Notes: a model not told the origin generated them from the sequence alone. Counted from the stretch's first letter, positions 1,085 through 62,996 are shown. The stretch is DNA of 64,000 nucleotides from Bacteroidales bacterium (GCA_017634595.1 JAGBNC010000009.1:5559-69558), one strand, 5' to 3'. Program-made: numbers and translations.

Positions 1085-1168
1085 TTATTCATCAATCCTT
1101 TCCACTATGAAGATGACAGGTCGCGTACCATCCGAACAGCAACATATCATTTCGTTTTCTTGTTTCAT
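1085..1168 (-). pseudogene. Collapsed TIGR04076-family remnant (27 aa)
   Basis: Reads MKQENEMICCCSDGTRPVIFIVERIDE*, nearly identical to the C-terminus of the remnant at 30814..31101. The 20 bp ending in ATGAAACA (1161-1180) are identical to 30802-30821. Confidence 0.85.
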
Positions 1169-1180
1169 CTAAACGGGAAT

Positions 1181-2143
1181 TTACCTTATAAAATCTATCC
1201 ATTTCTTTCGCACCTCTTTCCCCCTCTGCTCCCACTGCTCACGTGTGGTATCGCCAAGCATTCCGGTTCCTTTCCACCTTTCCCAATTGCCGAACAGGAG
1301 CATCAGTTCCAGACAGTGGCAGGCTCCGAAAAAAGAAGCGTCGGGCCGCCAGTCAAATTCTACGGTTTCGGCCTTGATTCCATTATTCTCTAGTTTTCTG
1401 ACATAACTTCTCGACGGGATGGTTATGCCTATCTGTGTAGCAATCCACCCGATAAGGTAGTGGAACAGATTTCCGGCCCTCTCTGTCCGCCCCAGTTTCA
1501 ATGCAACGAAGGGATATATATCGTCTTTTTGCCAGGAAACCAGCACCTTCTCTAAAGAAGGGATGGTGACTTTCCCCGAGAAATCCGGCTCCAGCGGGCT
1601 GAACGGCATCATTGAAGACGATGCTGCTAGATAGGACTTCTGGGCCGCCAGAACTTCTTCCGTAGTACATTCCGCTGGTCTTTTGCCTGCTATTCTCGTG
1701 AAAGCGGCAAGCATCTTCCGGGCCGACCTAACTGTATTTCTGAAGGTGAAGGGCGCGCTCTGGATAATAGCCCTTCGGCATAGAGCTTCATGGCAGGAAG
1801 AAATAATGGAAGCCACGGAATGCCCCCCGGCAGATTGACCGGCAAGCATTGAGCCGTCATATGCGACTTCCTCTCCACTTCCGGCCAGATAGGCGCCTCC
1901 GTGAATCCACACCAATACGGGACGTGCGCCCTTTCTGGAAGGTGTATATATGCTTAGGAAATGGCAATCCTCCGTTTGCGTGAGTTCATCATGGCCACCC
2001 ATCAGAAAACTCAGACGGAATGAATTCTGGGGACAAGCGGTAAGGGCCCCACTACCTTCCACGGCTCCTGTAAAAGGTTCAAGGACCGGATCTTCGAACC
2101 GTCCGGCCCTAGCATATCGAATGTGATGATACGATTCTACCAT
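1181..2143 (-). pseudogene. Type-B carboxylesterase with in-frame internal deletion
   Basis: PVLVWIHGGAY and GQSAG motifs present, but YDGSMLA is joined directly to GQSAG, so the usual ~60 aa segment (NYRLG...DQ...AALxW...FGGDP) is absent. Likely start MVESY at 2143. Confidence 0.8.
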
Positions 2144-2170
2144 AAGGTGGATAATAAATCGCGTTTTTTC

Positions 2171-2320
2171 TGACTGCAAAATTAAGTAATTAAAGCAAGA
2201 ACGGCAATCCGGCATTTTGTATGCATCGGCCATAGGAACCAGCAGATCCAGGCCCGCCGCAGCCCTTCAGAAACTGCCAATCGGGCCCGGGAACGGCAAC
2301 CCCAGGCCCGCCAATGGTAC
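2171..2320 (-). repeat. 51-bp-unit element with promoter tail, copy 1
   Basis: Reverse complement aligns with 26110-26365: one 51-bp unit, a partial unit and the AT-rich tail containing ATTG-N20-TAATTTTG (2205-2208, 2177-2184). Confidence 0.85.
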
Positions 2321-2578
2321 TATTCACAGAGGAAGTCGATGGCCTCTTCGCGACGGATGCCTGCCTCTGACATAGCCATGTCGTTCATTTCGTTGTGAAA
2401 GCAAAGGTAGAAATGCTCTTTCACAACCCGGTTGCAAAACATTTTTCGTATTTTTGCAGTGTCATGAGAATGAGACTATCTCTATACACGTCCGGGGTCC
2501 GAGGCCGAAAAGAGGTGGCGGGCAGAACACCCGGAAAGGACATTCATTTCAAAGTAAGCCGATTAAAAGTATCTTACC

Positions 2579-3181
2579 ATGTTCTGGGATCATGTTGCCG
2601 GGGTCTATGACCTTTTTGCCAATTACTACAACGCGGGGACGCACAGGGTCCTCTGCAAGGAAGTTGCATCTTTGATTTCCTCCGATGACGAGGTGCTTGA
2701 ATGCGCATGCGGGACAGGTCTGCTCACCCGGCACATTGCTCCCGTCTGCCGACATATCTTGGCGACGGACTTCTCTGAGAAGATGCTGGAGAGAGCCCGG
2801 CATAAATGCCGGGATTATGGCAACGCCTCATTCGAGTACGCGGACATTCTCCACCTTAACTATCCCGACGAATCATTCGACAAGGTCATTGCGGCCAATG
2901 TCATCCATCTGCTGGATGAACCGCTGAAGGCACTTTCCGAACTGGACCGGGTCTGTCGGAAAGGAGGACTGATCATCATTCCGACCTATATGAACCGTGA
3001 GAAGGGAGAAGGTAAGACAAGCGGGTTCGCGACCGCTGTCGGGAAAGCCGGTGCGGATTTCAAGCGGCAGTTCACCTTCTCCAGCTACCAGCAGTTCTTC
3101 GCTGAAGCCGGTTACAAAGAGGCGTCTTTCAAGATGATTGAAGGACGTGTCCCTTGCGCTGTAGCGATTTTGTCTAAATGA
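2579..3181 (+). CDS. Class I SAM-dependent methyltransferase (UbiE-like fold)
   Basis: VLECACGTG motif I, ATDFSEKML, ADILHLNYPDESFDKVI. Confidence 0.9.
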   Translation: MFWDHVAGVYDLFANYYNAGTHRVLCKEVASLISSDDEVLECACGTGLLTRHIAPVCRHILATDFSEKMLERARHKCRDYGNASFEYADILHLNYPDESFDKVIAANVIHLLDEPLKALSELDRVCRKGGLIIIPTYMNREKGEGKTSGFATAVGKAGADFKRQFTFSSYQQFFAEAGYKEASFKMIEGRVPCAVAILSK

Positions 3182-3268
3182 GCCGTAATAACGCAGTTTT
3201 GCCATTTCTATGGCTTTCGATGAGGAAGTCGCATCGTCGGCGGACTCCAGTATTCGTATCTTAGTACC

Positions 3269-3670
3269 ATGAAGTACAAGCACACCAACAGGCCGGGCTT
3301 CTGGCTCGGGTTTATAGACTTCTTCACGGCAGGGATCTTCTTCCTGCTGTACATGCCGCTCGGCGGCCTTCAAGACGAATTGGATGACATCCTTGGCCGG
3401 AGGACGCAGCGCTACTGGGTGGCTTACCTTCTTGGCATCCCGACTCTCTTTGTCTACACGCTAATCTGGATGTCCAGGATAGCCGAGGAGTTGAAGGCTA
3501 AAGCCATTGCGCTTGGCATAGAGGGGCCATATACCTCCTGGTGGCACATGTTCGGCTGGAATGTCTTCGGCCTCCCCTTGATGGGCCCAGCCGTCGCAAC
3601 CTACCGCTTCTTCGACACGCTTAACAAGATTGAAAGAAAGCTCAACGAGTCTTCTCTGGCTTCTGTGTGA
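3269..3670 (+). CDS. Small membrane protein (DUF4234-like)
   Basis: 133 aa with three hydrophobic segments and a T-x-GIF pattern. Confidence 0.6.
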   Translation: MKYKHTNRPGFWLGFIDFFTAGIFFLLYMPLGGLQDELDDILGRRTQRYWVAYLLGIPTLFVYTLIWMSRIAEELKAKAIALGIEGPYTSWWHMFGWNVFGLPLMGPAVATYRFFDTLNKIERKLNESSLASV

Positions 3671-3691
3671 GCTGCTCAAGATCTGTCGGTT

Positions 3692-20255: not shown

Positions 20256-20360
20256 ATGGAAAAGATCGGCATCCCACAGATCGGGGGAATCTTGGACATC
20301 GACTGCGGAGGAGGAATCAACATCGTCCGGCACTGGCTGGCAGCAACTGCACTGAAGTGA
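20256..20360 (+). pseudogene. Collapsed class I methyltransferase remnant
   Basis: 34 aa MEKIGIPQIGGILDIDCGGGINIVRHWLAATALK*: a motif-I-like ILDIxCGGG joined to a typical C-terminal HW...A.K end. Confidence 0.6.
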
Positions 20361-22418: not shown

Positions 22419-22649
22419 ATGATTCTGAACACCGGAGGACGGACGGATACTGTCCAGTATTATAGCGAGTGGCTGCTGAACCGCTTCCGGGAGGGGTACG
22501 TCCTGTCCCGGAATCCGCTGTTCCCGAACATCGTGAACCGGATTGATCTGAATCCGGAGGTGCTGGATGTGGTGGTGTTCTGCTCCAAAGACTACAGCCC
22601 CATCCTTCCGCGCGTGCCTTCCATTGAGGACAGCATCCGGACTGTTTGA
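22419..22649 (+). pseudogene. DUF1848-family remnant (internally deleted, truncated)
   Basis: MILNTGGRTDTVQYYSEWLLNRFREGYVLSRNP is a DUF1848 N-terminus; PILPR is joined directly to VPSIEDSI; stops at 76 aa. Confidence 0.8.
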
Positions 22650-26080: not shown

Positions 26081-26109
26081 GGTTTCCACCAGCACCTCCC
26101 ACCAGCCGC

Positions 26110-26780: not shown

Positions 26781-26832
26781 TTTATTGGTATAACAAGGCC
26801 CCAGTAGTCCTAATGGATTGCCGGGGCTTTGT
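26781..26832. repeat. 52-bp hairpin repeat, copy 1
   Basis: 49/52 identical to 62429-62480; all differences fall in the loop. Confidence 0.85.
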
Positions 26833-30813: not shown

Positions 30814-31101
30814 ATGAAACATAAAACCTTAAACATAAAGTTAAAGTAACTGTTATTGACAAGAAACTCTATCCTGAATACGCTCGTCAAAACTACAGCC
30901 GATCCTAACAGCGTTGCAGGTGGTCCCAAGATGCCACATTGCTCAGAAGCTTGGGATGCCATCAGCCGATACATATATACTGGTCTGCAAGGCGGCTCTA
31001 TTATGAAAGGCTGGATGAAACATGAAAATGAAATGATTTGTTGCTGCTCTGATGGAACACGGCCGGTCATCTTCAAAGTGGAGAGAATAGGCGAAGAATG
31101 A
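30814..31101 (+). pseudogene. TIGR04076-family remnant with internal deletion and frameshift
   Basis: N-terminal KHKVKVTVIDKKLYPE in one frame joins LNTLVKTTADP...CCSDGTRPVIFKVER in another at CCTGAA (30873-30878). Confidence 0.8.
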
Positions 31102-35694: not shown

Positions 35695-35781
35695 TCAGTC
35701 ATGGATTTTGGTGCCTCTGATCCACTTGACGACATCGACAGCCGGCATCTTCACGCCGTTGTTGAGTGTTACTTCTTTCAT
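35695..35781 (-). pseudogene. Collapsed aldo/keto reductase (28 aa)
   Basis: MKEVTLNNGVKMPA (compare TLNNGVVMP in 36313..37260) is fused to a C-terminal-like VDVVKWIRGTKIHD*. Confidence 0.75.
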
Positions 35782-37260: not shown

Positions 37261-37263
37261 GGC

Positions 37264-38118: not shown

Positions 38119-38137
38119 ATCTATAGCTGTTTTGAGT

Positions 38138-40057: not shown

Positions 40058-40334
40058 ATGCAGGATTATCGGATACTGAATAATCGGACAGACAGTGTGT
40101 CTCCGGAAGTTTTCCATGCCGACTATCATATTCACTTGCTCCCAAGTATCTCTCCGAAATCAGCAAGAACATCACCGGGAGGCCCGCCATGGACTGGATA
40201 GAAACCTATACGGCTCACGAACTCACCAAACTCCTTTCCGACACGCGCCTTACACTGACGGAAATCGTAGACCGTATGCATTTATCTTCCCAAGCCATGC
40301 TCACACGCTACCTGAAAAGGACTGTAGGAAAGAC
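40058..40334 (+). pseudogene. Collapsed AraC regulator
   Basis: N-terminal FHADYHIHLL (compare YKENYHCHIL in 34764) jumps to PKYLSEISKNITGRPAMDWIE...LTRYLKRTVG. Confidence 0.75.
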
Positions 40335-40425
40335 TTCGTCCTCAAATAAGGCGCAAAATGAGGACGAACTGGCCCAAAATCCCGTTTCGTCCTCAAATAA
40401 GGCCCATATTGAGGACAAGAAGGTT
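40335..40425. repeat. Tandem 51-bp palindromic repeat (second family)
   Basis: TTCGTCCTCA-AATAAGG...-TGAGGAC at 40335 and 40386; each unit is a hairpin. Confidence 0.75.
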
Positions 40426-40450
40426 CCCGAAAGGAAAACGCATATCACCT

Positions 40451-40575
40451 CTCCCGTGTACAGCCTGTGAATACTGCATGCCGTGCCCTTACGGCATCAA
40501 CATCCCGGGCATCTTCCAGCATTACAACAAGTGCGTCACGGAAGGGACTATGGCCACCGATCGCCAAGACCCGGG
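40451..40575 (+). pseudogene. Fragment of an Fe-S aldo/keto reductase C-terminus
   Basis: PCTACEYCMPCPYGINIPGIFQHYN, the same cluster motif type as in 5832..6953. Confidence 0.7.
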
Positions 40576-45024: not shown

Positions 45025-45038
45025 TGTCCGTCCCTCCA

Positions 45039-45191: not shown

Positions 45192-45417
45192 ATAGGGTAT
45201 GATAGGATTTCAGTATGAGCATTTCGGCAAGAATGCAAAATTACAAAATAAATGGAATGGTTATCCGGGTTTTGTTTGTTTTCCGTCCTGGTCGTTGGAC
45301 AAATCTTCTGGGCCCGAGAAAGGATGATAGAATAGTTTGTTTCCTTGCGCAAAATGTTTTAGGCCAATTTACCGGCTATGCGCAAAATGTTGGCTAATTT
45401 GCCGCGGCGGCAGGAGC

Positions 45418-45675
45418 GGCCTCAACGACCACAGGGTGGACACCCCCGGCCACCGCCTCCGGGCCGACTTCTCCGACGGTGATCCCGACATCGAAGCCCC
45501 GTATTACATCCTCAAACACACCCTCTGCACCGCCGTACTTACCGAGAATGGATTCATGGATTCGCCCCTCAGCCTGGCCTTCCTGGAATCAGCCGAAGGC
45601 AAGAAAGCCATCATAACCCTCCACGTTGAGGGAATCATAGACTTCATCAACCAGCGCGCCAACGAGCCACTATAA
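45418..45675 (+). pseudogene. Collapsed N-acetylmuramoyl-L-alanine amidase
   Basis: LNDHRVDTPG (degenerate NGHGxDTPG) is fused to HRLRADFSDGDPD...YILKHT.C.AVLTENGFMD...LHVEGI. Confidence 0.75.
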
Positions 45676-45868
45676 TTCCTCCCTACTCCACCCCTTTCCC
45701 TCGACACCAAAAGATGTCGGGGCTTTTGTATTTTCAAGACAGAATTTATGACAACTGTCCGTCAATTTGCATTTGTTATTTCATTTTGTTGCTCAATCTT
45801 ATACGTCTTTACATAAAAATCGTTAAATTTGTTAGTTGCATTTTGATTATTTTGAGTTAATACACTAT

Positions 45869-50046: not shown

Positions 50047-50058
50047 TATTTGAATTTG

Positions 50059-50874: not shown

Positions 50875-50890
50875 GTCATTGTATTTGAAT

Positions 50891-51853: not shown

Positions 51854-51873
51854 TGTTAACGTAGGTTCTATTA

Positions 51874-53139
51874 ATGGATGCTGAATTATTAAGACCTTAT
51901 CTGGACTGGTATAAAGCCAACTTCGCAAGCATCTTTGCGAAACACGAGGACTATAAGTGGGAGTCTATACAGACTTTCCAGGAAGCTTATCTGCCCGATA
52001 AGGCCAACTACCTTATAATTCTGAAAGAGGGCTTCAAACGGAGTGAGAATCTTCTCAATAGCCGTAGCGTGTATTCCCTGGGCATGATGCTGGACATTAC
52101 CAAGTTCAGCCAGTCACACCCCGATATTCAACCCTCTGGTCTGGATTTGTTCTATGAGCTATTTGAGGGTATCTCTCCAGAAGATACAGGAGACGTGCTG
52201 TTAGGGAAGATTTCCTCTTTCCGAAACCAAATCCGAGCATTTGTCAAGGCCAACCAGCCAGAAAAGCACAATGACTATCAGGACCTCCATGCCGTATCCG
52301 TTTACCTCAACCACCGGTATCCGGATAGGTTCTACATGTATAGAACCTCCGAATTCATGGAATTCAACGCCCTGATTGGTAATGAGTATCCGTATAAATG
52401 GGGCTCCGATCGCAACTACCTGGCTTACCTCGATATGTGCGATGACCTCAACGCCATCCTTCGCCAGGAGCTGGAACTGGATGCGGGGTTCCGTTTGGCA
52501 GTAGAAACTGCTGTCAATTCTGATTCGAAGTATTTCAAGGATGTTGAGAGACGTATCTTGACACAGGATTTCATCTATTCCGTTACCCGCTATTACAAGA
52601 TGGATATGACCGGACGGTATGCGGAACAGATGAAGACAAAGAGCCTGACCACCAAGGTTGATTATGTTGCTGTTGAGGATCTGAAACCTAAGGATCATAC
52701 AACGCCAGTTGCCGCCGGAAGTTCGACTCCTTCAAAGACGGACTACGTCCTCCGTCAGAAAGAAAACAATCGTCTTGGTGCTGCTGGAGAGCAGTGGGTG
52801 TACGCGTATGAAAAGAAGCGTCTCCTTGCTGCTGGACGGAAGGATCTGGCCAAGAAGGTTGAATGGGTTGCTCAGAAAGATGACTCGAAGGGTTATGATA
52901 TTCTCTCCTTTGACGAAGAGGGAAACGAACTGTTCATTGAAGTTAAAACCACTAATGGAGGCATTAAGACGCCGTTTTACCTATCGGCCTTAGAAATGGC
53001 TGTTAGCGGCAGCAACGCTGCGAAATATCGGCTCTATCGCGTCTACGATTTCCTCAAGGCGCCGAAGCTGCGCGTCATCATCGGCAATATCGGCTTACTG
53101 AATCCTCAGCCCACGAATTACATAGTATACACTGATTAA
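51874..53139 (+). CDS. DUF3883 (NO VEIN C-terminal-like) nuclease with N-terminal putative DNA-recognition domain
   Basis: LGAAGEQWV...GYDILSF...IEVKTT...FYLSALE...YRLYRVY; N-terminal EDYKWESIQTFQ and DLHAVSVYL..RYPDRFY. Confidence 0.85.
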   Translation: MDAELLRPYLDWYKANFASIFAKHEDYKWESIQTFQEAYLPDKANYLIILKEGFKRSENLLNSRSVYSLGMMLDITKFSQSHPDIQPSGLDLFYELFEGISPEDTGDVLLGKISSFRNQIRAFVKANQPEKHNDYQDLHAVSVYLNHRYPDRFYMYRTSEFMEFNALIGNEYPYKWGSDRNYLAYLDMCDDLNAILRQELELDAGFRLAVETAVNSDSKYFKDVERRILTQDFIYSVTRYYKMDMTGRYAEQMKTKSLTTKVDYVAVEDLKPKDHTTPVAAGSSTPSKTDYVLRQKENNRLGAAGEQWVYAYEKKRLLAAGRKDLAKKVEWVAQKDDSKGYDILSFDEEGNELFIEVKTTNGGIKTPFYLSALEMAVSGSNAAKYRLYRVYDFLKAPKLRVIIGNIGLLNPQPTNYIVYTD

Positions 53140-53149
53140 TTACCGGCCT

Positions 53150-54052
53150 ATGGACACCCCGAAAATCTCCAAACTCCTTCGCCTGATGAAACTCCTCACC
53201 GGGAATGTGAGCCGGACCATTGACTCGCTGGCCGAGGAACTGGGCGTAACAACACGGACGGTGTACCGCTACATCGACACCATTCGGGAGGCGGGCTTCG
53301 TGGTGAACAAGCTCTACGGCAACGTGTACGCAATGGGCAAAGTGGCCCGGGGCCTCACCGACTTCAAGAAGCTCATCTATTTCACCGACGAGGAGGCCTA
53401 CCTGGCCGCCAGGATGATAGAGGGCATCGACAATAACAATGCCCTAAAGCGGGACCTGCAGCGGAAGCTGGCCAGCGTCTATGACTGCACCAGCATTGCC
53501 AACTATATCGACAATCCCGCCAATGCGGCGAACATCGAGGCGCTGAGCGAGGCTATGAAAAACAAGGTGCAGGTGGTGCTTCGAGGCTATGAATCGGCCC
53601 ATAGCGATGAGACGCGGGACCGCGTGGTGGAGCCGTTCTCGTTTACGGCGAATATGATTGACGTGTGGGCCTACGACGTGGAGAAAGGCGACAGCCGGAT
53701 GTTCAAGGTGATGCGCATCCATTCCGTTGAGGCAACCGAGACGCCCTGGGCCTTCGAGGATAAGCACGAAGTCAAAAAGCCGGATGTGTTCAGGATGACC
53801 GGATCACCGGTAGAGAAGGTGGTCCTGCAGCTGAACACCCGCGCCAAGAGCCTCCTGTTGGAAGAATACCCGCTGGCGGAGAGGGATTTGCATCGCGAGG
53901 ACGGTAAGTGGGTGCTGCGGACCACCGTGAAGGCGCTGGAAGGGGTTGGCCGGTTTGTGATTGGCCTGGCGGCGGATGTGAAGGTGGTGGAGGGGAAGAA
54001 GCTGGTGGGGTATGTGAGGAAGTATGATAAGAAGTGGGTGCAGAAGATATAG
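53150..54052 (+). CDS. WYL-domain HTH transcriptional regulator
   Basis: LAEELGVTTRTVYRYIDTI HTH; YESAHS..RDRVVEPF...WAYD...RMFKVMRI. Confidence 0.92.
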   Translation: MDTPKISKLLRLMKLLTGNVSRTIDSLAEELGVTTRTVYRYIDTIREAGFVVNKLYGNVYAMGKVARGLTDFKKLIYFTDEEAYLAARMIEGIDNNNALKRDLQRKLASVYDCTSIANYIDNPANAANIEALSEAMKNKVQVVLRGYESAHSDETRDRVVEPFSFTANMIDVWAYDVEKGDSRMFKVMRIHSVEATETPWAFEDKHEVKKPDVFRMTGSPVEKVVLQLNTRAKSLLLEEYPLAERDLHREDGKWVLRTTVKALEGVGRFVIGLAADVKVVEGKKLVGYVRKYDKKWVQKI

Positions 54053-54057
54053 GAATA

Positions 54058-55245
54058 TTATCGTCCCAGGAACCATTTCCAGGCAGGAACGATGTGAATG
54101 ATTCCCAGTGCATCCTGGACATCTTCTTCCATATCGCGCGTGACAATGGTCAAGTCCCTGCAGCCCGTTAAGCTAGCAGCTTCACGAATGCCGTTCAACT
54201 CCCGTTCCCGGGTGTCTTTGTCTTTCATATCCCAGCATACCTGAATCAGTTGATTTACGGCAGTTTCGGTCTGGATAACGAAGTCACATTCCTTCTCCCC
54301 AAGGTAATAGCAGATCTTCTGTCCGTCAGGAAGATTCCTGAGCAATTGCAGGAACACGGCGTTCTCTAACAGAATTCCATCATCATCCTTACCTGGCAGC
54401 AAAACAGATTGACGTAGCCCATTATCTACACAATAGTATTTGGGAAGAGCGCTGGTCTCCTTCTTGAAGGATAGGTCAAACTTGGTCACCTTGTAAAGCA
54501 GGAAGATTGAGCAGGTTTTGTCGGCAATATCATACAGGCCGTCTTTGGTGACTTTCCGGCCTTGGGAGCGCATGTCGTTGTAGATAGCGTTGATAGATGC
54601 CGGCTTGGTCATGCCGGCCATCAGACGTTTGATTACGTATTTGACGCGTTCCGGATTGGACAGTTTGTATCGGTCCATCAAATCTCGGAAGATCATGGCG
54701 TTGAAGTATCCTTGCAGGAGTTTATCCTTCATTACGCGACTGGGCTCAAGGACCACTTCCGGATATCCGCCTTCGTGGACAAAGGAATCGAAGGTGCAGC
54801 GAAGAAGCGCTAAGTCTTTCTCCAGATGGCTGTCTGTAGGGATGCCCTTAAACTGACAGTATTCCTTGAAGGACAGAGGATATTCTTTATATTCAAGCGG
54901 CCAGCCCCTAAGTGCGGTATTTAGCTCTTCGGATAGCATATCGGCATTGCTACCGGAGATGAAGATGTGTTTGCTGTAGTGCTTGGACAGGCGCATAACG
55001 AAGAGTTCCCAGCCTTCGATGCGCTGGATTTCGTCGAAGAAGAAGTAAACGTCCTTGATGGGGATATCCGGGAACATCTCCATATAGGCCTCCAGGATGG
55101 TGTTGAAGTCAGAGTTCCATCAGTGTGGATTTCCCACAACGTCGCACCCCTACGGTGGTTATGATCTTCTTAGAATCTATGGGAAGCTCAACTTCACGGG
55201 GATTATAGGAAATAGGAATTTCCTCCTGTTTGAGGGCTATTAGAA
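54058..55245 (-). pseudogene. AAA_14/DUF4143 ATP-binding protein, disrupted
   Basis: Walker A part (LIALKQEEIP...GVRRCGKSTLMEL*) is out of frame with the FFFDEIQ...LLENAVF...ECDFV part (ORF 54058..55083); junction near 55112-55116; no start codon. Confidence 0.85.
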
Positions 55246-55387
55246 TTAAGGAAAGATTTTGTAAAAATTTCCTGAAATTCAGGAAAGATTACATTCCCTC
55301 TTCTTCCCAGGCATGTAGGGTTTTAGTTTTGTAAAATTCTAGGAAAGGTGTATAGATTGCCTTCCGAAAACTCTAGGATTCGTGATT

Positions 55388-55650
55388 ATGAGAAGAAAGA
55401 TATACTACAAGCTTCTCCAGTGGGAGCAAGAGTTACATTGCAAAGGAATTCGCCCGCAATGAATATGACTCATTCATCCTTATCGATTCCAAAAGGAAAA
55501 TGTTACTTCCAGGCATAATATTTCGCCAATAGAAGTTAAAAGTAGCACAAACTACACGCTCACATCGCTGAGGAAGTGCATCAGTACTGGACGGAGCTTC
55601 GTTCGCAAAGCTCATCACGAAGCCGGAGATGTTGGCTCTTTTCATGGTTG
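55388..55650 (+). pseudogene. Multiply collapsed AAA_14/DUF4143 remnant
   Basis: MRRKIYYKLLQW | KSYIAKEFARNEYDSFILID | SRHNISPIEVKSSTNYTLTSLRK, in different frames. Confidence 0.75.
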
Positions 55651-55859
55651 ATGGGGATTAAAGGGTTGAACTTGAGTTATGTTGACGGTCTGTCAATATT
55701 TCGTTGAAATGCTCAATGGCCCAGGCAAGCAGTTCATCCAGAATGGGCAGCACGCTGCCAGCCCGCTCGGTAAGGGTATATTCCACCTTCACCGGAACGG
55801 CGGCAATGACGAAAAATGCCCGGTCGTCAGGCCGGGCATTTTTGTATGTCGAAGGACGA

Positions 55860-57284
55860 TTATTCGGGATCTACCAGCCAGTAGAGCTCCCAGATGGAGT
55901 CGTTGCAGGGGTTGAGGTTCTTTCCGTCCATCACAGAGGTCTGGTTGACATCGATCCAGCGGCTCCACTGGGTGGCGGCGTTGAAGGCGGAAGAGGTATA
56001 GCTTGCGCCATAATCCTTGTACGACTTGTCTAGTTCTTTGGAATACATGGAAATGCCGATGCTGTAGGCGTGATGCTCCGGGAGGATGCAAACACCGCCG
56101 GCATCAGTACGGTTGGCACCGACAATGGCGGTGATACGGGCGTCGTCAATGGCTTTGGTAAGGGATTTTATGAGTTCATCCACCTCTTTTAAGGCAGCTT
56201 CACCCTTGATATTCTTCCGCAGTGCATAGGGAATGTCCAGCAGATCGGCATAGGCATTATCCTTCTCGAATAGATACACCTGATGGGTAGCCATGTCGAT
56301 ATTGTCCTTTTCGTCGGTCTTGTAGTTCTTTACGAGGAAACTCGCCAGTTTTTTCACTTCGGCGTTGATGCCTGCAATCTTATTCGAGCGCCAGCAGCTG
56401 AAGTCGCAGTTTTCCTGGTGAAGGATGCTTGCATCCTTTTCATCGGGAATATTCTGGAAGCATTGAACGTAGATATCTTCCAGTTTCTCCTTATGCAGTT
56501 TGGCGGCTTTCTCGAAATCATCCGGGTATGTATTGATGCCCTCGATCAGGTAGGATACAACCTGCATAATGGTACGGGAAACATGGGAGCTGGCAAACTG
56601 ATAGTCGCAGATGGGAGCCGTCTCGGTAAGCACCTCAATCTGACCCATGAGGCAGCCGAACCAGACGATAGCCTTCAGGTGGGTGTTGGTCTCCTGGAAA
56701 GCGGCTTTGACGGTTTTGCAGGAGAGCCCCTTCAGGTTGTGGTTGTCGTCGTAGATGATGGCCTTGGTGAGCGTTTCATGGTCCAGGTCAAAGCCGCCGC
56801 CGTGGTCTGTGGGAACGAAGATATAATTCTCTGCGGGGACATTCTTCTTGACCCAGTTGATGTATTCTACCAGCGTGGACTGCTTGTACATGGGCACCTC
56901 GGAGGCGTTCTTGTAGATGTATTTTTTGTAACCCTCTTTGGTGAGATCTGTCTTGTCGGTAAGTTCATAGCGGTAGCATTTGCCCCATTCGCCGACTAAC
57001 TGTTTTTTCTCATAGTCAGAATAGGCCTCGCCTGTCTTGGACATGTTCCACTGGACGGCAAAACGCACGTCCTTGTTTCCCACGTTCATCGCTTTGAGGT
57101 ATTCCTCGATACCGAATTCCAGCATGCCGTCTACGTTTCCACCACCGCTGCCGTAGAACATAATGGTGTATTTGGCCGGGGTAGTGTTTACCGGTTCATC
57201 GGTGTTGTCTTTGGTGCAGGAAACAATACTCATGGCCAAGGTGACGCTGATGCCGATGAGTACGGAATGGAAAAAGGTTTTCAT
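55860..57284 (-). CDS. Clostripain (C11)-family cysteine peptidase lipoprotein
   Basis: Lipobox IVS-C, YTIMFYGSGG, catalytic DHGGG and FGCLMG, FASS. Confidence 0.8.
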   Translation of the reverse strand: MKTFFHSVLIGISVTLAMSIVSCTKDNTDEPVNTTPAKYTIMFYGSGGGNVDGMLEFGIEEYLKAMNVGNKDVRFAVQWNMSKTGEAYSDYEKKQLVGEWGKCYRYELTDKTDLTKEGYKKYIYKNASEVPMYKQSTLVEYINWVKKNVPAENYIFVPTDHGGGFDLDHETLTKAIIYDDNHNLKGLSCKTVKAAFQETNTHLKAIVWFGCLMGQIEVLTETAPICDYQFASSHVSRTIMQVVSYLIEGINTYPDDFEKAAKLHKEKLEDIYVQCFQNIPDEKDASILHQENCDFSCWRSNKIAGINAEVKKLASFLVKNYKTDEKDNIDMATHQVYLFEKDNAYADLLDIPYALRKNIKGEAALKEVDELIKSLTKAIDDARITAIVGANRTDAGGVCILPEHHAYSIGISMYSKELDKSYKDYGASYTSSAFNAATQWSRWIDVNQTSVMDGKNLNPCNDSIWELYWLVDPE

Positions 57285-57295
57285 TATAGTTGGGC

Positions 57296-58486
57296 TTAAA
57301 AATTATGCAAAGGTACGTATGATTCTTGTTTTTTCAAGACAGAGATGCCCGGTCGTTCTTGGTTTTCCGGCAGCATCTGCTTCTTGCGTGTCAGGACGGC
57401 TTGGAGGAGGTAAATTATGGCGATGCAGACACCGACGGCGTAAGGAGAAGTGCCTGCCATTGATGCAACGGGGGAGACGACCAGCGGCGAGACAAACTGT
57501 CCTAGATAGAGGGCAGCGGAGAGAAGCGGCATCACAGTTGTAGCCGCCTCCTTGCCAGCTTTCACGGAGCCAATAGTATTAAGATACGGGACACCGATTC
57601 CATTGGCAATGCCGATAAATGCCGATCCAAGCAGGAGCCAGACAAGGCCGCTACCCGTAGCCAGGCACAGATACCCGGCGGCAAACCCCAGCGGGGCGAC
57701 ATACTTCATCTGAGCGGCGAAGCGTTTCATCAAGGCGCCGAAAACCAGTCCTACCAGAAAAGCCACCACGTCCAATCCCACCATCGTGAGCGTTATGCCC
57801 AACTCCGAAAGGGTTTCCGAAGCCGTCAGGGCAAAGTTGGTTGGATAGATGAAGAAGAGAATCATCACCAGGAACATGCCCACCACAGACGGGTGAAAGC
57901 GCCTGAGCAGCGAAAGGGATACTCCTCCACGCCCGGACAGGCGTTCATTAGGCAGGAACGCTGCCACCAGGATAACGGCGATGAGTCCCAGCAGATACAC
58001 CAGAAACGCATAGTTCCAGCTGATTCCGGCCAGCATCCCGGCCAGGAAGGTGGCGACCACACCGCCCATCTGGTTCATGGCAGCCGACAGCCCCATCAGC
58101 CCCGCCTGCTCCTCAGGCGGGAAATAGTAAGCCAGCAGACCGGTGGAAAGCGGCATGATCATCCCGACGCTCACGCCCATCAGGGCACGGAAAAACAGCA
58201 ACAGCCCAATATTGTTCACAAAGAACGCCCCGGCTCCGGAAAGCACGTATAAGGCAAGCCCTGTCAGCGCCAGCGTGCGGGTTTTCATTAGGCGGCAGAG
58301 CCAGGGAAATACCAGGTTCGTGAGGATAATAAAAAGTGCCGGAAGGCTCACGATGAGCTGGATGAGCAGCGGATTCCGTCCTTCGAAATGCGCACTGATG
58401 ACGCCCAGCGCCGGAGCAATGGCAGCACCTGCCATGACGGTCAACAAACTGATGGAGAGAATGGTGTACAGCAATCTCTTTTTCAT
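57296..58486 (-). CDS. MFS transporter
   Basis: About 12 TM helices; FFRALMGVSVG, GGVVATFLAG, ISWNYAF. Confidence 0.92.
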   Translation of the reverse strand: MKKRLLYTILSISLLTVMAGAAIAPALGVISAHFEGRNPLLIQLIVSLPALFIILTNLVFPWLCRLMKTRTLALTGLALYVLSGAGAFFVNNIGLLLFFRALMGVSVGMIMPLSTGLLAYYFPPEEQAGLMGLSAAMNQMGGVVATFLAGMLAGISWNYAFLVYLLGLIAVILVAAFLPNERLSGRGGVSLSLLRRFHPSVVGMFLVMILFFIYPTNFALTASETLSELGITLTMVGLDVVAFLVGLVFGALMKRFAAQMKYVAPLGFAAGYLCLATGSGLVWLLLGSAFIGIANGIGVPYLNTIGSVKAGKEAATTVMPLLSAALYLGQFVSPLVVSPVASMAGTSPYAVGVCIAIIYLLQAVLTRKKQMLPENQERPGISVLKKQESYVPLHNF

Positions 58487-58881
58487 GATATAAACGGTTT
58501 AAATTACAGTGGAGATTGCAGCTCTACCAAGCTGCGAAAAGAGCCTTTTCGCGGGTGCAAAGGTAACATTTTTTTGTCTCCCAGGGTCACAAACGGACGC
58601 ATTTTTTGTGTATTTGCTATGGAATCCGCTATGTATAAGATACATACGAAGATTCATGTCTGATTTAACAACTAGCACAATGCCAAAGACATTCGAAACC
58701 TACAATGCGGAACTCCAGAACAACGTCCTCACCATCCAGAAGGGGAACATCACCGAGGCGGAAAACGCTTCCTACAAGTTCTTCAAGGCCGGTGTGATTA
58801 TCGCAGGCGGCGAGCCGTAGTCTACTGGCCTTTCTAGGCTGCAGGAATGCAAATGACTGCTCGAATTCAACCGATTCAGAT

Positions 58882-59098
58882 ATGATTTCCTACAAGAAGA
58901 TTCAAATTGAAGACTGCAATGTCTTTTATCGTGAGGCTGGATCTCCGGAGAATCCCACCATCCTTCGTTCCAGCGGGAGCAGAAGCCTTCAAGCGCGACC
59001 TGCCGAACGCCGTGGTGAAGTTCGTAGACAGCGGCCATTTTGCCTTGGAATCCCATCACACTGAGATCGCTTGCTATATCAAGGATTTCCTAAGGTAA
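58882..59098 (+). pseudogene. Collapsed alpha/beta hydrolase
   Basis: MISYKKIQIEDCNVFYREAGSPENPTIL is fused out of frame to PSFVPAGAEAFKRDLPNA...DSGHFALE at CCATCCTT (58958-58965). Confidence 0.85.
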
Positions 59099-59124
59099 AA
59101 TCCAGTTTCTCGGTCTGATTAAGC

Positions 59125-59940
59125 TTATATGGTTTTGAGCCCGATGAAGTGCTTGATTCCGGGTGTTTGGCAGTCCCGGTAGTCTTTGTTGATGCGGATG
59201 AGGGTTACATCCGAATATTTTGCAGCCATCCGTTCGAAGGGGAAACGGATAATAGTTGGGGTATTGAAACCGACGCCGTATTCAATCAGTGCCAGTTTTC
59301 CTTTGCCGAGCGATTTCTCCAAAAAAGCGTAGTAGCGCTCTGCCTGCTGATGCCAGCGGTCGTCCTCCACAAAGTACCGGTCCTTGCGGACATTGATTTC
59401 CATCGGCCCGCCGCAGACGGGACACCGAGGAACCAGCGATGAAGGGATGCGGCAGTCTTTCTGCTCAGCGACCATCTGCTTCACAAGCGATTCATTGTTG
59501 TATCGCTTGGGGTGGCAGGCTGTAGCGCACTGCATGAGGCCGTAATCTCCCTGCACTTCAAACACCTTGTCCGGGTCAAAACCAGCCTTGACAAACTGTC
59601 CGTCCACATTGGTGGTAATAACAAAATAGTCCTTCCCCTGTATCATCTCAAGCAGGTGCTTGTACAGCGGTTTCCCTTCTGGGGCGAAGCGGGCATAGTC
59701 AATGTGCCGGGACCAGTAGGCCCATTTCTCTTCCTCGCTCCGGAACGGATAGAACGAGGATGTGTACAGATCCGTGAAGCCGTAGCGTGCAATCATATCG
59801 GCGAAGGCTTTCTCGAAGTCGGGTCCGCCATAGTTGATACCGGCAGCCGTTGACAACCCGGCTCCTGCGCCGATGAGGACGGCATCGGCCTGCGCAATGG
59901 CTGATTCAGCCTTTTGCAAGGGCGATTTGATAAAGCTCAT
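59125..59940 (-). CDS. Class M sirtuin (SirTM-like) ADP-ribosyltransferase
   Basis: IGAGAGLS, YFVITTNVDGQF, VQGDY (Gln replacing the catalytic His), QCATAC...CPVC, EYGVGFNTP. Start at MSFIKS. Confidence 0.88.
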   Translation of the reverse strand: MSFIKSPLQKAESAIAQADAVLIGAGAGLSTAAGINYGGPDFEKAFADMIARYGFTDLYTSSFYPFRSEEEKWAYWSRHIDYARFAPEGKPLYKHLLEMIQGKDYFVITTNVDGQFVKAGFDPDKVFEVQGDYGLMQCATACHPKRYNNESLVKQMVAEQKDCRIPSSLVPRCPVCGGPMEINVRKDRYFVEDDRWHQQAERYYAFLEKSLGKGKLALIEYGVGFNTPTIIRFPFERMAAKYSDVTLIRINKDYRDCQTPGIKHFIGLKTI

Positions 59941-60685
59941 GGTCAATGTCTTTGAAAGTGTTGAAGACGACAGTTTTGACGGACGATTCAGGGTGACTCG
60001 CCATCCAGGAACGGACGGTGGAAACGGCAATCTCGCAGGCCTGGTCATTGGGGAAGCGGAATTCTCCCGTGGAGATGCAACAGAAAGCAATGGATGCCAG
60101 ACCATGCTTGTGTGCAAGATCCAGGCAGGATGTGTAGCAGGAAGCCAGCTGCACTTTCTGCTGGCGGAGGGGCCGGGGAGTCGTCACAATGGGACCGACA
60201 GTGTGAATGACATGCTTTGCCGGGAGGTTGAACCCAGGCGTTATTCTGGCACTGCCCGTTGGCTCTTCCGTGCCGTGCATCATCTTCTCGCACGCAAGCC
60301 TGAGCTGTACGCCCGCCGCCGAATGGATGGCATTGTCAATGCAGCGGTGAAGGGGCACAAAACAGCCCAGCATCTGCGAATTGGCGGCATTGACGATGGC
60401 GTCCACCTTCAGGCGTGTGATGTCGCCCTGCCATTCGCGAAGAGATTGACCTGCAATCTCCACCACCCCTTTCTCCGCCAACTGCGCCTGCAACTCTTCA
60501 TCCTGCACCTGCAGGAACTCCTCAGATACAGGCACCGGCGGCCGCACGTTCATCAGTGCCCGGAAAAAGTCCCGCCTCTCCTGCAGGGAGTCCGGTACGG
60601 GCATATGCCGATACCTGGGATTCTCATCCAGCAGGCATCGGCAAAGCCACTCAAGACGATTATATTCAGAATCCGAATTTTCCAT
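59906..60685 (-). CDS. Zn-binding macrodomain protein-ADP-ribose hydrolase
   Basis: WQGDIT, AIVNAAN, GCFVPLHRCIDNAIH (C-x4-H-x-C), HTVGP, CISTGEF. Confidence 0.92.
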   Translation of the reverse strand: MENSDSEYNRLEWLCRCLLDENPRYRHMPVPDSLQERRDFFRALMNVRPPVPVSEEFLQVQDEELQAQLAEKGVVEIAGQSLREWQGDITRLKVDAIVNAANSQMLGCFVPLHRCIDNAIHSAAGVQLRLACEKMMHGTEEPTGSARITPGFNLPAKHVIHTVGPIVTTPRPLRQQKVQLASCYTSCLDLAHKHGLASIAFCCISTGEFRFPNDQACEIAVSTVRSWMASHPESSVKTVVFNTFKDIDHELYQIALAKG

Positions 60686-60917
60686 AAATCATAACAATTG
60701 ATAATCGACACAAAAATAATAATATACTTTATATTTGTCAAGTAGATACTTTTTTGTAAGTATATAGTTTTTTCGTAAGAAATGGAAAAGAATGTAATTG
60801 ACGCGATATATATGGTGATTACTTTTTTGATAATATTTTTTTTCGGGTAGTTTTTTTATGCTTACTATTGGAAAGTATAAATATCTTCTTTACCTTTGCT
60901 GCATCAAATCACGCGTC

Positions 60918-61268
60918 ATGAAAGAAGTCAATACCGCTTATCTTACTTGTCCCATTCGGAATGTCATCGCCCGTTTCGGCGACAAATGGTCCCTGCTGGT
61001 CCTGTATCACCTGCATAAGTATGGGACCCTTCGCTTTGGCCAAATATATAAGGAAATGAGTGATGTGTCCGAGAAGATGTTGTCGGCCACGCTCAAGAGT
61101 TTGGAGCGGGACGGCCTTGTTAGGCGTAAAGCTTATCCGGAGGTTCCGCCGCGCGTGGAATATTCCCTTACTTCGCTTGGAGAATCCTTGATGCCTCACG
61201 TGGACGGCCTCGTCGGCTGGGCGGTGGAACACTTTCAAGATGTCACGCACGGGAAAGTACTTGTATAA
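60918..61268 (+). CDS. HxlR-family winged-helix regulator
   Basis: CPIR...GDKWS...LRFG...SEKML...LERDGLV.R..YPEVPPRVEYSLT..G. Confidence 0.93.
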   Translation: MKEVNTAYLTCPIRNVIARFGDKWSLLVLYHLHKYGTLRFGQIYKEMSDVSEKMLSATLKSLERDGLVRRKAYPEVPPRVEYSLTSLGESLMPHVDGLVGWAVEHFQDVTHGKVLV

Positions 61269-61279
61269 ACCTCAGAGCC

Positions 61280-61732
61280 ATGAAAGAAGCACTGGATTTC
61301 CTAAAAGAGAACAATGAGGTGGCATTTGCCACCATTGGAAATGGCCGTCCGCAGATGCGCGTATTCCAGATTATGAAGCAGTATGAAACCACTCTCTGGT
61401 TCGCCACTGGTCCACACAAACGCGTCTATGCGGAATTGCAAGAGAATCCCGCTGTGGAGATTCTTTCCCGGAAAGGAAACGTCTCAGTTCGCGTGAGCGG
61501 CGATGCCGTATTTGATATCCCAGACGATATCTGCAAGGAGATCTACAAAACCAATCCTGTCCTGCCCAGGTTATATCCGGACTACAGGTCCCTGGCCTAT
61601 TTCCGCGTAGAGATTGACCGCCTGGATTACTATGACCTTACACCCACTCCGCCAGTCCTCCGCCACTATGACCGCACAACTGGACAGTACGTGGATTTGA
61701 ATCCTTTTGGAGAGAAGAAAACGAAGGTGTAA
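61280..61732 (+). CDS. Pyridoxamine 5'-phosphate oxidase-like FMN-binding protein
   Basis: FATI..GRPQMR, LWFAT...K.VY.EL..NP.VE. Confidence 0.85.
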   Translation: MKEALDFLKENNEVAFATIGNGRPQMRVFQIMKQYETTLWFATGPHKRVYAELQENPAVEILSRKGNVSVRVSGDAVFDIPDDICKEIYKTNPVLPRLYPDYRSLAYFRVEIDRLDYYDLTPTPPVLRHYDRTTGQYVDLNPFGEKKTKV

Positions 61733-61761
61733 ATTCGTGTTTATCAGTGAGATGAATAACC

Positions 61762-61786
61762 GGGAGCGCAATCACTGCACTTCCGG
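61762..61786. repeat. REP-like hairpin, copy 2
   Basis: 24/25 identical to 26056-26080; lies downstream of the PNPOx-like gene. Confidence 0.7.
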
Positions 61787-61964
61787 AATTTTTTATAAGT
61801 AATTCACACCAGCCGTCGCATTTGCCATCGCGTCGGACCAGGTAGGCTATCTCCGACAGACTGTATGGGATGTAAACTATAGTGTCTGGACGAAATAGTC
61901 AGAAAGGTTGGACTAAATAGAAAAGCCGGTTTGTCTGAATCATCGTACCTTTGCTTCCAGATAG

Positions 61965-62345
61965 GTGATGGAACTGTTATACAATGTAATGGACTGCTCA
62001 AAGAACATCTTCCGCCAGATGCTCCAATTGCGTCAACCAGTAAAGGTGGACGTTCATCGCGTGGTGGAGGAAAACTACACTTCACCCATATCGCTTGAAG
62101 AATTGGCCTATCTCTCTGGCCGCTCCCTCTCCAGTTTCAAACGCGATTTCCAGAGCATCTACGGAGAGCCACCTGCCAAATGGATTCGTGAGAAGCGATT
62201 GTCGAAAGCACATCAGATGCTTCTGTCCTCTCAACTGTCCGTTGCAGATGTGGCTTATAGTCTTGGTTTCGATAATCCCACCCATTTCAGCCGTATCTTT
62301 AAACAGCAATATGGATCTTCGCCATCCGCGCTAAGAAATCGTTAA
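61965..62345 (+). pseudogene. AraC regulator, C-terminal half only
   Basis: ISLEELAYLSGRSLSSFKRDF...GFDNPTHFSRIFK; the sensor domain is absent and the ORF starts just after a TACCTTTG promoter. Confidence 0.75.
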
Positions 62346-62428
62346 CAGTATAGCGATGCTCTCTTCGCTATAGCAATTGTCATTCTTTTTCCCTTGCCTT
62401 TTTATTTAAACCGGCAAGTAAATTCACA

Positions 62429-62480
62429 TTTATTGGTATAACAAGGCCCCAGTAGTCCAGTTGGATTGCCGGGGCTTTGT
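62429..62480. repeat. 52-bp hairpin repeat, copy 2
   Basis: 49/52 identical to 26781-26832. Confidence 0.85.
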
Positions 62481-62576
62481 TGTGATGTAGGGAAGAGGTA
62501 GGATCCATCCGGGAACATTCCCGGAACGCGCCATGCCATACCTCTGGACGAGCGCAGACTTTGACCGGATTCTGTT

Positions 62577-62687
62577 TCAGTCCTGGTTCTGGCTCTCGAT
62601 GTAGGCGATGATGCCGCCGTCAACGTGCAGCTGGACAATGGCGGCTTTGCCTTCGTCGCTGAGGAGGAACTCCAGCGAATCCTTGCA
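62577..62687 (-). pseudogene. Amidase C-terminal fragment
   Basis: CKDSLEFLLSDEGKAAIVQLHVDG aligns with SLAFLESAEGKKAIITLHVEG of the remnant at 45418. Confidence 0.7.
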
Positions 62688-62996
62688 GGCGAGAAGCCCA
62701 TCCGTGTTTCCATTTCCATGCGCGGCAAGCGTTACATCACCACCATCGGCTACACCATCACTTGCTACCGCAACGGCACCCGTTACGATGAAGTGTACCC
62801 AAAATATGAGCCGATCGGCACTCACACCGGCCGCAAGACCTTCATCTGCTTCATGCTCTCCATCGGCATCGCCCCCCAGGTCGTCATGAAATTCACCGGC
62901 CATGCCGACTACAAATCCATGAAGCCCTACATCGACATCGCCGAAAAAGCCAAGACCGACGCTATGGATGCGATGGAAAGAGCGCTCGCCGAATAA
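62688..62996 (+). mobile_element. Collapsed tyrosine integrase (arm-binding N-terminus fused to catalytic C-terminus)
   Basis: GEKPIRVSISMRGKRYITTIGYTI is joined to TCYR...PKYE.IGTHTGRKTF...FTGH...MKPY; box I (catalytic Arg) is missing. Confidence 0.8.

Follow-up and report, generated by a model that had tools for sequence, protein, structure and literature searches.

Deletions between short direct repeats in the broken genes of a ruminant-gut Bacteroidales accessory region

The window analyzed here, a 64-kb stretch of a rumen Bacteroidales genome, contains about 14 broken genes, the majority of which were shortened by deletions between repeats of 4-11 bases. The stretch is a low-GC accessory chromosome region of a ruminant-gut Bacteroidales species, and we consider it probable, with good confidence, that its unneeded genes are undergoing ordinary deletional decay between short direct repeats. 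The source genome is a 36-contig metagenome-assembled genome (MAG), 97% complete. Long-ORF coverage of contig C5 was the lowest among the large contigs (0.87 versus about 0.94) and its GC content was lower; the contig share of DNA outside long ORFs, used as a proxy for deletion rate, was about twice the genome share.

All junction k-mers named in the original prediction were located: CCTGAA at 30873, CCATCCTT at 58958, GCAAGAG at 55426, CCCGGC at 45445, the LA codons at 1841-1846, ACCATC inside CTACACCATCA (62750-62760) and AACTC inside GAACTCTG (minus strand, 55110-55117). The accompanying description of genes surviving only as fused N- and C-terminal pieces held for the hydrolase, the AraC regulator at 40058, the amidase, the integrase, the second AAA ATPase and the mini TIGR04076 remnant, and probably for the aldo-keto reductase (AKR). 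It did not hold for the esterase, the first AAA ATPase, the larger TIGR04076 copy and DUF1848, which are less collapsed, lightly damaged genes. Both sides of a single gap aligned to an intact homologue for the esterase, DUF1848, the first AAA, the hydrolase, both TIGR04076 copies, the amidase and AraC. Profile coordinates and alignments to intact homologues both confirm that the truncations are real.

Lightly damaged genes and the TIGR04076 copies

The carboxylesterase gene (1181..2143, minus strand) has one in-frame deletion of 177 nt (59 codons) between the HGG region and the GQSAGG nucleophile elbow, with CTTGCCG at the junction (1840-1846). Its COesterase profile match covers positions 24-127 and then 188-243. 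The alignment to the intact 390-aa homologue P0241 (90% amino acid and 91-92% nucleotide identity) reads SM-LA-[EEGD...DKIT-LA]-GQSAGG, and in the intact DNA the left end is CTTGCCG, the right end CTCGCCG. An estimate of about 170 missing residues, derived from the 515-position Pfam profile and a 569-aa relative, was rejected since close relatives have 378-390 aa, which leaves 59 residues missing. A contig from an independent bovine sample covers 1791-2348, including the junction, without gaps.

The mini TIGR04076 remnant (1085..1168, minus strand) is a 27-codon ORF whose start codon has been joined to the last 26 codons, with the junction k-mer ATGAAACA at 1161-1168, and it matches only positions 65-91 of the NCBIfam TIGR04076 profile. 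In the intact 130-aa homologue P0121 a 10-nt repeat, (G)ATGAAGCAT, is found at the start and again 306 nt further in, and in the larger TIGR04076 copy of the window the repeats lie 201 nt apart; the p value of the mini junction was about 1e-4. The larger copy (30814..31101, plus strand; intact homologues P0121 and P0122, 130 aa) contains a 14-nt templated duplication after codon 4 (30826-30839) and a 119-nt out-of-frame deletion at CCTGAA (30873-30878), for which P0122 DNA has CCTGAA on the left and AATGAA on the right (4 nt exact, p 0.02). The fused reading fills the whole 91-position NCBIfam profile, as if there were no deletion, but this interpretation was rejected because the closest homologues have 130 aa.

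The DUF1848 remnant (22419..22649, plus strand) matches positions 1-70 of the 262 in Pfam DUF1848. A 78-nt in-frame deletion joins two Pro-Arg codon pairs (CCGCGCG at 22608-22614), and the gene ends after codon 76, about 225 codons (the 3' two thirds) being gone. Intact orthologues of two sister species read ...SPIL-PR-[26 aa]-PR-VPSIEDSIRT..., and their DNA contains exact 7-nt repeats, GCCGCGC and CGCGCGT (p 0.0006).

The first AAA gene, an AAA_14/DUF4143 ATPase (54058..55287, minus strand), has intact 434-aa alleles in the same 90% cluster and matches the AAA_14 profile at positions 2-20 and then from 62. A 92-nt frameshifting deletion follows the Walker A motif (junction 55110-55117), where L032 DNA (90% identity) has the left-end sequence GAACTCTG and the right-end sequence GACCTCTG, with an exact match of 5 nt (p 0.006), and a 61-nt deletion (about 55244-55247) takes the start codon.

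Collapsed genes and stumps

The alpha/beta hydrolase skeleton (58882..59098, plus strand; intact homologues of 279-280 aa) retains 28 N-terminal and 46 C-terminal codons, joined out of frame at CCATCCTT(C) (58958-58966) with the loss of 626 nt. In an X-padded search the intact homologues were 89-93% identical over the C-terminal piece. In the DNA of homologue P0014 the left-hand sequence is ACC ATC CTT C and the right-hand one CCT TCA TTC. Depending on the frame, the overlap encodes TIL or PSF, and each agrees with the residues of the homologue. A Logan contig covering 58645-59130 includes the junction.

The AraC regulator skeleton (40058..40470, plus strand), found by tblastn and Pfam HTH_18, joins 28 N-terminal codons (40058-40141) out of frame to the C-terminal HTH (from 40132), with an overlap of ACTTGCTC at 40134-40141 and about 164 codons gone. 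In tblastn the intact 272-aa AraC protein of a sister species matched over residues 2-29 and 194-266 (71% each), in frames overlapping by 10 nt. A second AraC-type stump, absent from the original prediction, lies at 61965..62345 (plus strand) and was recognized by an HTH_18 call in a sister assembly; it consists of the C-terminal HTH domain only, with 126 versus about 290 codons.

In the Amidase_3 skeleton (45412..45675, plus strand; Pfam positions 125-173 of 174) an in-frame deletion of about 345 nt joins two Pro-Gly codon pairs at CCCGGC (45445-45450): relatives read GHGVETPG-[115 aa]-RHLPG-HRLRTD and the window copy DHRVDTPG-HRLRADF. A sheep-sample contig (45015-45648) covers this junction. 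The 3' end of a second amidase (about 40 codons; 62577..62708, minus strand) was detected by tblastn, in which it was 47% identical to the C-terminal end of the Amidase_3 skeleton. The tyrosine integrase skeleton (62691..62996, plus strand; Pfam Phage_integrase positions 125-170 of 172) has about 20 arm-domain codons in frame with a catalytic tail of about 80 codons, the junction lying within CTACACCATCA; integrase homologues of the genus, of 440-480 aa, align from Y43 onward only.

The second AAA skeleton (55363..55650, plus strand), whose frames were read by eye with the help of own-genome paralogues such as GVRQCGKTF, comprises about 45 N-terminal codons, a broken Walker A motif and about 45 C-terminal codons (..PIEVKSS..). 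The k-mer GCAAGAG at 55426 had been proposed as the collapse junction; its position is correct, and the lesion is probably instead a 13-nt loss within the Walker A motif between GCAAGA repeats.

Two further stumps, read by eye, are too short for their identity to be confirmed. One is a possible SAM-methyltransferase (20256..20357, plus strand; 34 codons, motif I LDIDCGGG), for which no Pfam match was obtained and the genus search returned the window itself alone. The other is a probable AKR (35695..35781, minus strand) with 15 N-terminal codons (MKEVTLNNGVKMPAV) followed by 13 C-terminal codons and the stop; this stretch is unchanged in a sheep-sample contig covering 35321-35837. An apparent AKR paralogue elsewhere in the genome proved to be a false lead. 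Profile searches with the AKR, methyltransferase, integrase-arm and second-AAA pieces matched nothing.

Junction repeats, strain variation and rival explanations

Seven junctions were compared at the nucleotide level with the DNA of intact homologues, using a simulation for each junction and a Fisher combination. The individual p values ranged from 0.0001 to 0.056 and the combined p was 1.3e-9, or 1.1e-7 when the worse homologue was taken each time, indicating that the junction k-mer occurs at both deletion ends far more often than expected by chance. Exact repeats against intact alleles were 10 nt for the mini TIGR04076, 7 nt for DUF1848, 5 nt for the first AAA and 4 nt for the larger TIGR04076 and for the esterase (7 nt with one mismatch), and the strain comparisons gave 11 nt and 6 nt. 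For the hydrolase and amidase they were 3-6 nt in diverged homologues; since the homologues are just 71-83% identical, one of the two repeats in the hydrolase, amidase and AraC genes was deduced from amino acid agreement. Microhomology was absent at some sites: the 61-nt start deletion of the first AAA has 1-2 nt at most, a 22-nt strain indel at 755 has 1 nt, and a 1613-nt strain difference (37261-38873) has 14 unrelated letters between its ends (filler at 37260/38874).

The junctions were found within single Logan contigs of the source run with zero differences, and they recur in Logan contigs of four source-study runs, in other ENA assemblies and in sheep and bovine samples. Mapping across the junctions, performed at the contig level, gave support from several runs and samples. 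The source genome being a 36-contig MAG, misassembly, strain co-assembly or chimeric amplification might be suspected of having made the junctions, but we regard this as extremely improbable. A different assembler, using a single run at about 30x depth, gave every checked junction without differences; the junctions are present in at least five other samples and assemblies and are common to more divergent sheep and cattle strains; and repeats of 4-11 nt, far below assembler k-mers, cannot collapse a de Bruijn graph, so that an assembler would be unable to make these joins. Since independent assemblies and further gut samples from sheep and cattle contain the remnants, an assembly artefact was rejected; it would require a single contaminating source for all data sets.

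Exact-protein look-ups aimed at divergent strains yielded near-identical strains only (99.6-100%). The majority of the scars are fixed across strains from different hosts. Three strain-specific deletions were also found. At the integrase junction the strains in runs X5 and X10 hold 137 extra nt between two copies of the 11-mer CTACACCATCA, and in contigs of X8 and X12 the extra letters run on as ...GYTINEDKWDKPRQ, still arm domain. In the second AAA, X5 holds 97 more nt between two copies of the 6-nt repeat GGACGG (55589-55594). Strain X12 has lost a further 32 nt from the first AAA (55244-55275), between repeats identical at 14 of 15 positions. Because other strains keep longer forms, erosion was stepwise and went on after the strains diverged. 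Intact alleles and strain polymorphisms therefore agree with the original view that the genes were cut down by deletions with short repeats shared at their ends, one copy being kept.

Some in-frame products might have been kept as still working proteins, namely the esterase, the 341-aa AAA ORF, the 123-aa integrase fusion and the 27-aa TIGR04076 peptide. Their ORFs are open, other metagenomes repeatedly contain short in-frame TIGR04076 variants (91-119 aa), and dN/dS against intact homologues is low (0.13 for the esterase and 0.05 for the first AAA). We nevertheless consider retained function very unlikely. Low dN/dS would result equally from recent inactivation, and these values, with no other lesions in the two genes, suggest that the deletion was the first, recent hit. 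The esterase no longer has the core that separates its oxyanion hole from its nucleophile elbow, neither Walker A nor start remains in the AAA ORF, and the same remnants keep receiving further strain-specific deletions. Moreover, 8 of about 12 deletions shift the frame; the 4 that are multiples of three fit the expectation without selection for frame.

The deletions might also be driven by restriction: breaks made by a type III restriction-modification (R-M) system or a neighbouring nuclease, possibly triggered by a changed methylase specificity, would be repaired by microhomology end joining, raising the deletion rate locally or in the lineage. The window does encode a type III mod/res pair and two nucleases, according to domain calls, and the target-recognition region of mod is swapped in X5 (1078 nt for 1078 unlike nt, 46378-47457), indicating that R-M specificity changes within the species. 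A Ku domain was not found in the 97%-complete genome (positive control B. subtilis), and without Ku any end joining would have to use microhomology; the 14-nt duplication and 14-nt filler resemble end joining or template switching more than simple slippage. On the other hand, the scars are for the most part old and fixed, bacteria in general show this pattern, stumps are common throughout the genus, and the same genes decay otherwise in lineages not known to share the R-M system. Restriction-driven erosion thus appears very unlikely.

Nor was the idea of an unusually active deletion process supported: related lineages are losing the same genes through other deletions. The esterase, DUF1848, TIGR04076 and amidase genes have different deletions or stops in other lineages; in the DUF1848 cluster the relatives P0365, P0367 and P0368 are broken at other places. 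Stumps of both the integrase and the amidase family occur commonly in the genus (150 sister species), about a quarter of the matches listed for these two families being in short open frames, as judged by eye. The term ordinary is based on comparison with these relatives and with the literature. We see little likelihood that this ruminant Bacteroidales genus has an exceptionally high frequency of deletion between very short repeats, as might follow from bursts of self-restriction, repaired at microhomologies, after R-M specificity changes; if it had, the raised rate would be the motor keeping the genomes small (1.5-3 Mb), and the numerous internal-deletion variants that the same small genes show independently of one another in rumen metagenomes would be its footprint.

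In the favoured explanation, ordinary deletional decay, each deletion would join two short direct repeats of 4-11 nt, sometimes imperfect and 13 to about 630 nt apart, keeping one copy. Such joins may arise when strands slip during replication or when ends are joined at microhomology without Ku; replication slippage accounts for the scars as well as end joining does. Successive deletions would shrink a gene from the inside. Its ends would persist, presumably because selection removes deletions that extend into a useful neighbour or its signals, and also because conserved ends stay recognizable to a reader.

The stretch is a clean example of pseudogene shrinkage, with intact alleles, fixed scars and strain-level intermediates within 64 kb. 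In annotation the approximately 14 stumps would become short hypothetical ORFs or be missed. No new question is opened, and neither an exceptional rate nor a link to restriction was shown.

Comparison with known deletion systems

Deletions in lacI between short direct repeats were reportedly described by Albertini et al. in 1982. The scars of the window are real, well documented and ordinary, and both the mechanism class and the pattern are already published. In RecA-independent short-repeat deletion by replication slippage (PMC5426353) one copy of the repeat is likewise kept, and the repeats are of 5-11 nt, may be imperfect and lie tens to hundreds of bases apart; RecA independence and distance dependence are features of that system, whereas the present case is known from sequence alone. 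Alternative end joining in E. coli, as described by Chayot et al. 2010 and cited in PMC6054270, resembles it in Ku-independent joining at microhomology and in occasional filler or templated letters (here the 14-nt cases); extensive resection is typical of that pathway, which starts from a double-strand break and involves RecBCD and LigA, whereas here only the scars in the DNA are available. The deletional bias reported by Kuo and Ochman (PMC2817411, PMC2916853) also concerns deletions in non-functional genes with net DNA loss. In diverse Ku-less bacteria about 40% of the deletions in pseudogenes have microhomologies of 1-12 nt at their ends (PMC6054270), and the pseudogenes of that study (Danneels et al. 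2018) share with those of the window the 1-12-nt microhomologies, the non-functional genes, the lack of Ku/LigD and the net loss of DNA. That study differs in having scored mainly small indels, of at most 15 nt, in symbionts whose genomes are undergoing reduction, whereas here deletions of 13-630 nt occur in one accessory region of a free-living gut anaerobe, several of them as strain polymorphisms.

Reality of the junctions and genome setting

The window lies at positions 5559-69558 of contig C5 in a genome of 2.59 Mb (36 contigs, 97% complete). The GC content of this contig was 0.50 against 0.53-0.55 in most of the genome, and ORFs of 100 aa or more covered a fraction of 0.87, the lowest value among the large contigs, compared with about 0.94; the stretch is accessory and gene-poor. 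Gut metagenomes from a single source study contained sequence near-identical to the window, and sheep and bovine gut samples contained window-like sequence diverged by 1-2%. The relatives form a large genus of the same order with genomes of 1.5-3.7 Mb.

The original prediction was that genes in this stretch had collapsed at 5-9 bp microhomologies, and the junction k-mers it named were all found in place. Logan contigs of one source run, produced by another assembler, crossed the junctions with 0 differences at about 30x depth (1467-8095, 35078-36463, 44001-51217, 54090-55401, 58645-59130 and 62649-62948). The esterase junction was also spanned in a bovine run of 2016, contigs of a sheep run spanned those of the AKR, the amidase and the two AAA genes, and window 44058-64000 was matched at 99.6-100% by six ENA or Logan assemblies of other samples. 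Since the junction repeats (4-11 nt) are much shorter than assembler k-mer sizes, the joins cannot be assembler-made, and assembly artefact is excluded as their source.

Truncated genes and repeats at the deletion ends

Profile searches bore out that the genes had been cut short. The esterase (1181-2143, minus strand) matched COesterase at profile positions 24-127 and then 188-243, and the first AAA gene (AAA_14/DUF4143; 54058-55287, minus strand) matched AAA_14 at positions 2-20, restarting at 62. Only positions 125-173 of 174 of Amidase_3 were matched by the amidase (45412-45675, plus strand), 125-170 of 172 of Phage_integrase by the integrase (62691-62996, plus strand), 1-70 of 262 of DUF1848 by the DUF1848 remnant (22419-22649, plus strand) and 65-91 of 91 of TIGR04076 by the mini copy (1085-1168, minus strand); HTH_18 was the sole domain matched in the AraC remnant (40058-40470, plus strand). 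The description of 'skeleton' genes stood as regards truncation, but the esterase, the first AAA gene, the larger TIGR04076 copy (30814-31101, plus strand) and in part DUF1848 are only lightly damaged. In comparisons with intact homologues dN/dS was 0.13 for the esterase and 0.05 for the first AAA gene, with no further lesion, indicating that the deletion was a recent first hit in both. The AKR (35695-35781, minus strand) and methyltransferase (20256-20357, plus strand) stumps are putative, having been assigned from resemblance only. Two stumps were absent from the original list, an AraC HTH (61965-62345) and an amidase 3' end (62577-62708).

Intact alleles were sought by protein searches using the two remnant pieces with X padding between them, and 90% clusters gave more of them. 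The nearest intact relatives of the esterase have 378-390 aa rather than about 515 aa. The homologous protein P0241 was 90% identical to the window esterase (91-92% in DNA). Exactly 59 codons are missing from the window gene (...GSM-LA-[EEGD...DKIT-LA]-GQSAGG), and in intact DNA the left deletion end is CTTGCCG and the right one CTCGCCG. In two sister species, DUF1848 orthologues that share 94% identity across the first 62 residues have SPIL-PR-[26 aa]-PR-VPSIEDSIRT, the repeats being exact over 7 nt; the 78 nt between these repeats are gone from the window and, separately, so is everything beyond codon 76. The first AAA gene shares its 90% cluster with intact alleles of 434 aa (90% DNA identity), and comparison with their DNA placed a deletion of 92 nt between GAACTCTG and GACCTCTG; its start codon was removed by a 61-nt deletion with almost no microhomology. 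The hydrolase (58882-59098, plus strand) has lost 626 nt relative to intact homologues of 279-280 aa, and its kept junction CCATCCTT(C) translates as TIL in the frame of the left piece and as PSF in that of the right piece, both being homologue residues; in the homologue P0014 the left end has this k-mer exactly, while the right end shows two synonymous differences from it. Amidase relatives read GHGVETPG...[115 aa]...RHLPGHRLR against HRVDTPGHRLR in the window, so that Pro-Gly is present at both deletion ends. The AraC remnant at 40058 matched residues 2-29 and 194-266 of an intact 272-aa relative in two frames with a 10-nt overlap. From its paralogues, the GCAAGAG junction of the second AAA remnant (55363-55650, plus strand) probably reflects the loss of 13 nt within the Walker A motif, GAR[QVG]KS.

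The intact form of TIGR04076 has 130 aa. The larger copy carries a 119-nt deletion at CCTGAA and, after codon 4, a 14-nt templated duplication (30826-30839) in which the inserted ACCTTAAACATAAA copies the preceding AAACATAAA past a 5-nt filler and frameshifts the gene. In the mini copy the start codon is joined to an internal Met, and a 10-nt repeat occurs at precisely its two join sites in the homologue P0121 and in the window's larger copy. Many shorter open forms of this 130-aa subfamily (91-119 aa; P0124, P0160, P0176, P0186, P0219, P0222, P0234, P0240 and P0173) were found in public metagenomes. The internal block that is missing differs from form to form; a repeated ADP(N/K/D) motif bounds several of them, and one has an unrelated N-terminus fused to it. 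Either repeat-mediated deletion has recurred here or a short form is tolerated.

Breakpoints were set by best alignment, and the exact repeat was measured in the intact sequence and compared with 20,000 random breakpoint pairs from the same sequence. This gave p values of 0.02 for the esterase, 0.0006 for DUF1848, 0.006 for the first AAA gene, 0.056 for the hydrolase, 0.02 and 0.0001 for the larger and mini TIGR04076 copies and 0.05 for the amidase. Fisher's combination over these seven junctions gave 1.3e-9, or 1.1e-7 with the less favourable homologue wherever two existed, indicating that the junction k-mers occur at both deletion ends beyond chance.

Differences among strains

We found strain-level INTERMEDIATES at the integrase junction, at the second AAA remnant and at a site beside the first AAA junction. 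A second strain lineage (four runs: X5, X8, X10 and X12) has the same left flank at the integrase junction. Contigs of X5 and X10 matched 62560-62760 and then 62750 onward, with 126 other letters intervening; in their lineage CTACACCATCA thus occurs twice, at a distance of 137 nt, and in the window once. Contigs of X8 and X12 ran beyond 62760 into extra letters starting ACGAGGACAAATGGGAC..., which keep the frame as GYTINEDKWDKPRQ and still encode the integrase arm domain, indicating that the loss occurred in the window lineage. The second AAA remnant has 97 more nt in strain X5, between two copies of GGACGG (site 55589-55594; 91 letters separate the copies). Beside the first AAA junction, a segment of 32 nt (55244-55275) between repeats identical at 14 of 15 positions is absent from strain X12.

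Strain differences of other kinds were a 22-nt indel showing a single nucleotide of homology, the replacement of two genes by 14 letters and a swapped target-recognition region of mod. At window position 755, near the 3' end of a lipoprotein gene (10-822), X5, X6 and X7 carry 22 more nt (GGAGTTATTGGGAGAAATACTG), so the C-terminus of the lipoprotein is frameshifted in the window strain. Two minus-strand genes of 284 and 246 codons (37261-38873) are missing from the X5 and X7 strains, which have 14 letters (AAGTATATTAGATT) instead. Within the type III methylase gene (46378-47457), 1078 nt are exchanged for 1078 unlike nt in X5, presumably a target-recognition domain swap, so that R-M specificity would vary among strains. 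At 26100-26340, an array of tandem repeats with a unit of about 70 nt (GCGGGCCTGGATTTGCCGTTTCCGGGCC...) varies in copy number among strains, with differences of 140 and 20 nt in X5, X6 and X7. A 52-nt element occurs twice in the window (62429-62480 and 26781-26832, 94% identity), and in strain X10 the former copy is extended by about 80 nt at 62468-62470. In one otherwise identical strain (locus L073) an IS110-family transposase has inserted immediately behind the PNPOx gene (after window position 61741). In another organism (locus L029) an intact esterase adjoins a homologue of the MFS gene region; in the window (1176-2170 and 58005-58575) the two are 56 kb apart, suggesting rearrangement or mosaic acquisition.

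Mechanism and rate of deletion

The scars are consistent with deletions that join short direct repeats, which supports this class of mechanism. Replication slippage and Ku-independent end joining are inseparable from sequence alone; no Ku was found in the genome (97% complete). Of about 12 deletions, four have lengths divisible by three, as neutral loss would predict. The suggestion of an unusually active process was not supported, since most scars are fixed across strains of different hosts and stumps and decay also occur in relatives. Other lineages show different deletions or stops in the same esterase, DUF1848, TIGR04076 and amidase genes, and in 150 sister species about one-quarter of the listed matches to the integrase and amidase lay in short frames (judged by eye, some being contig ends). 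Nor did we see any indication that the scars originate from type III R-M, as had been proposed.

Gene ends would remain by construction after successive internal deletions, and deletions reaching useful neighbours may be purged, which would keep the ends; conserved termini may also be the parts still recognisable to a reader.

Overall, the observation is confirmed with corrections, and the feature is real but ordinary. A deletional bias of bacterial genomes is known (PMC2817411, PMC2916853), and the deletion pattern itself is already published: microhomologies of 1-12 nt were reported at about 40% of pseudogene deletions in diverse bacteria, most of them without Ku/LigD (PMC6054270).
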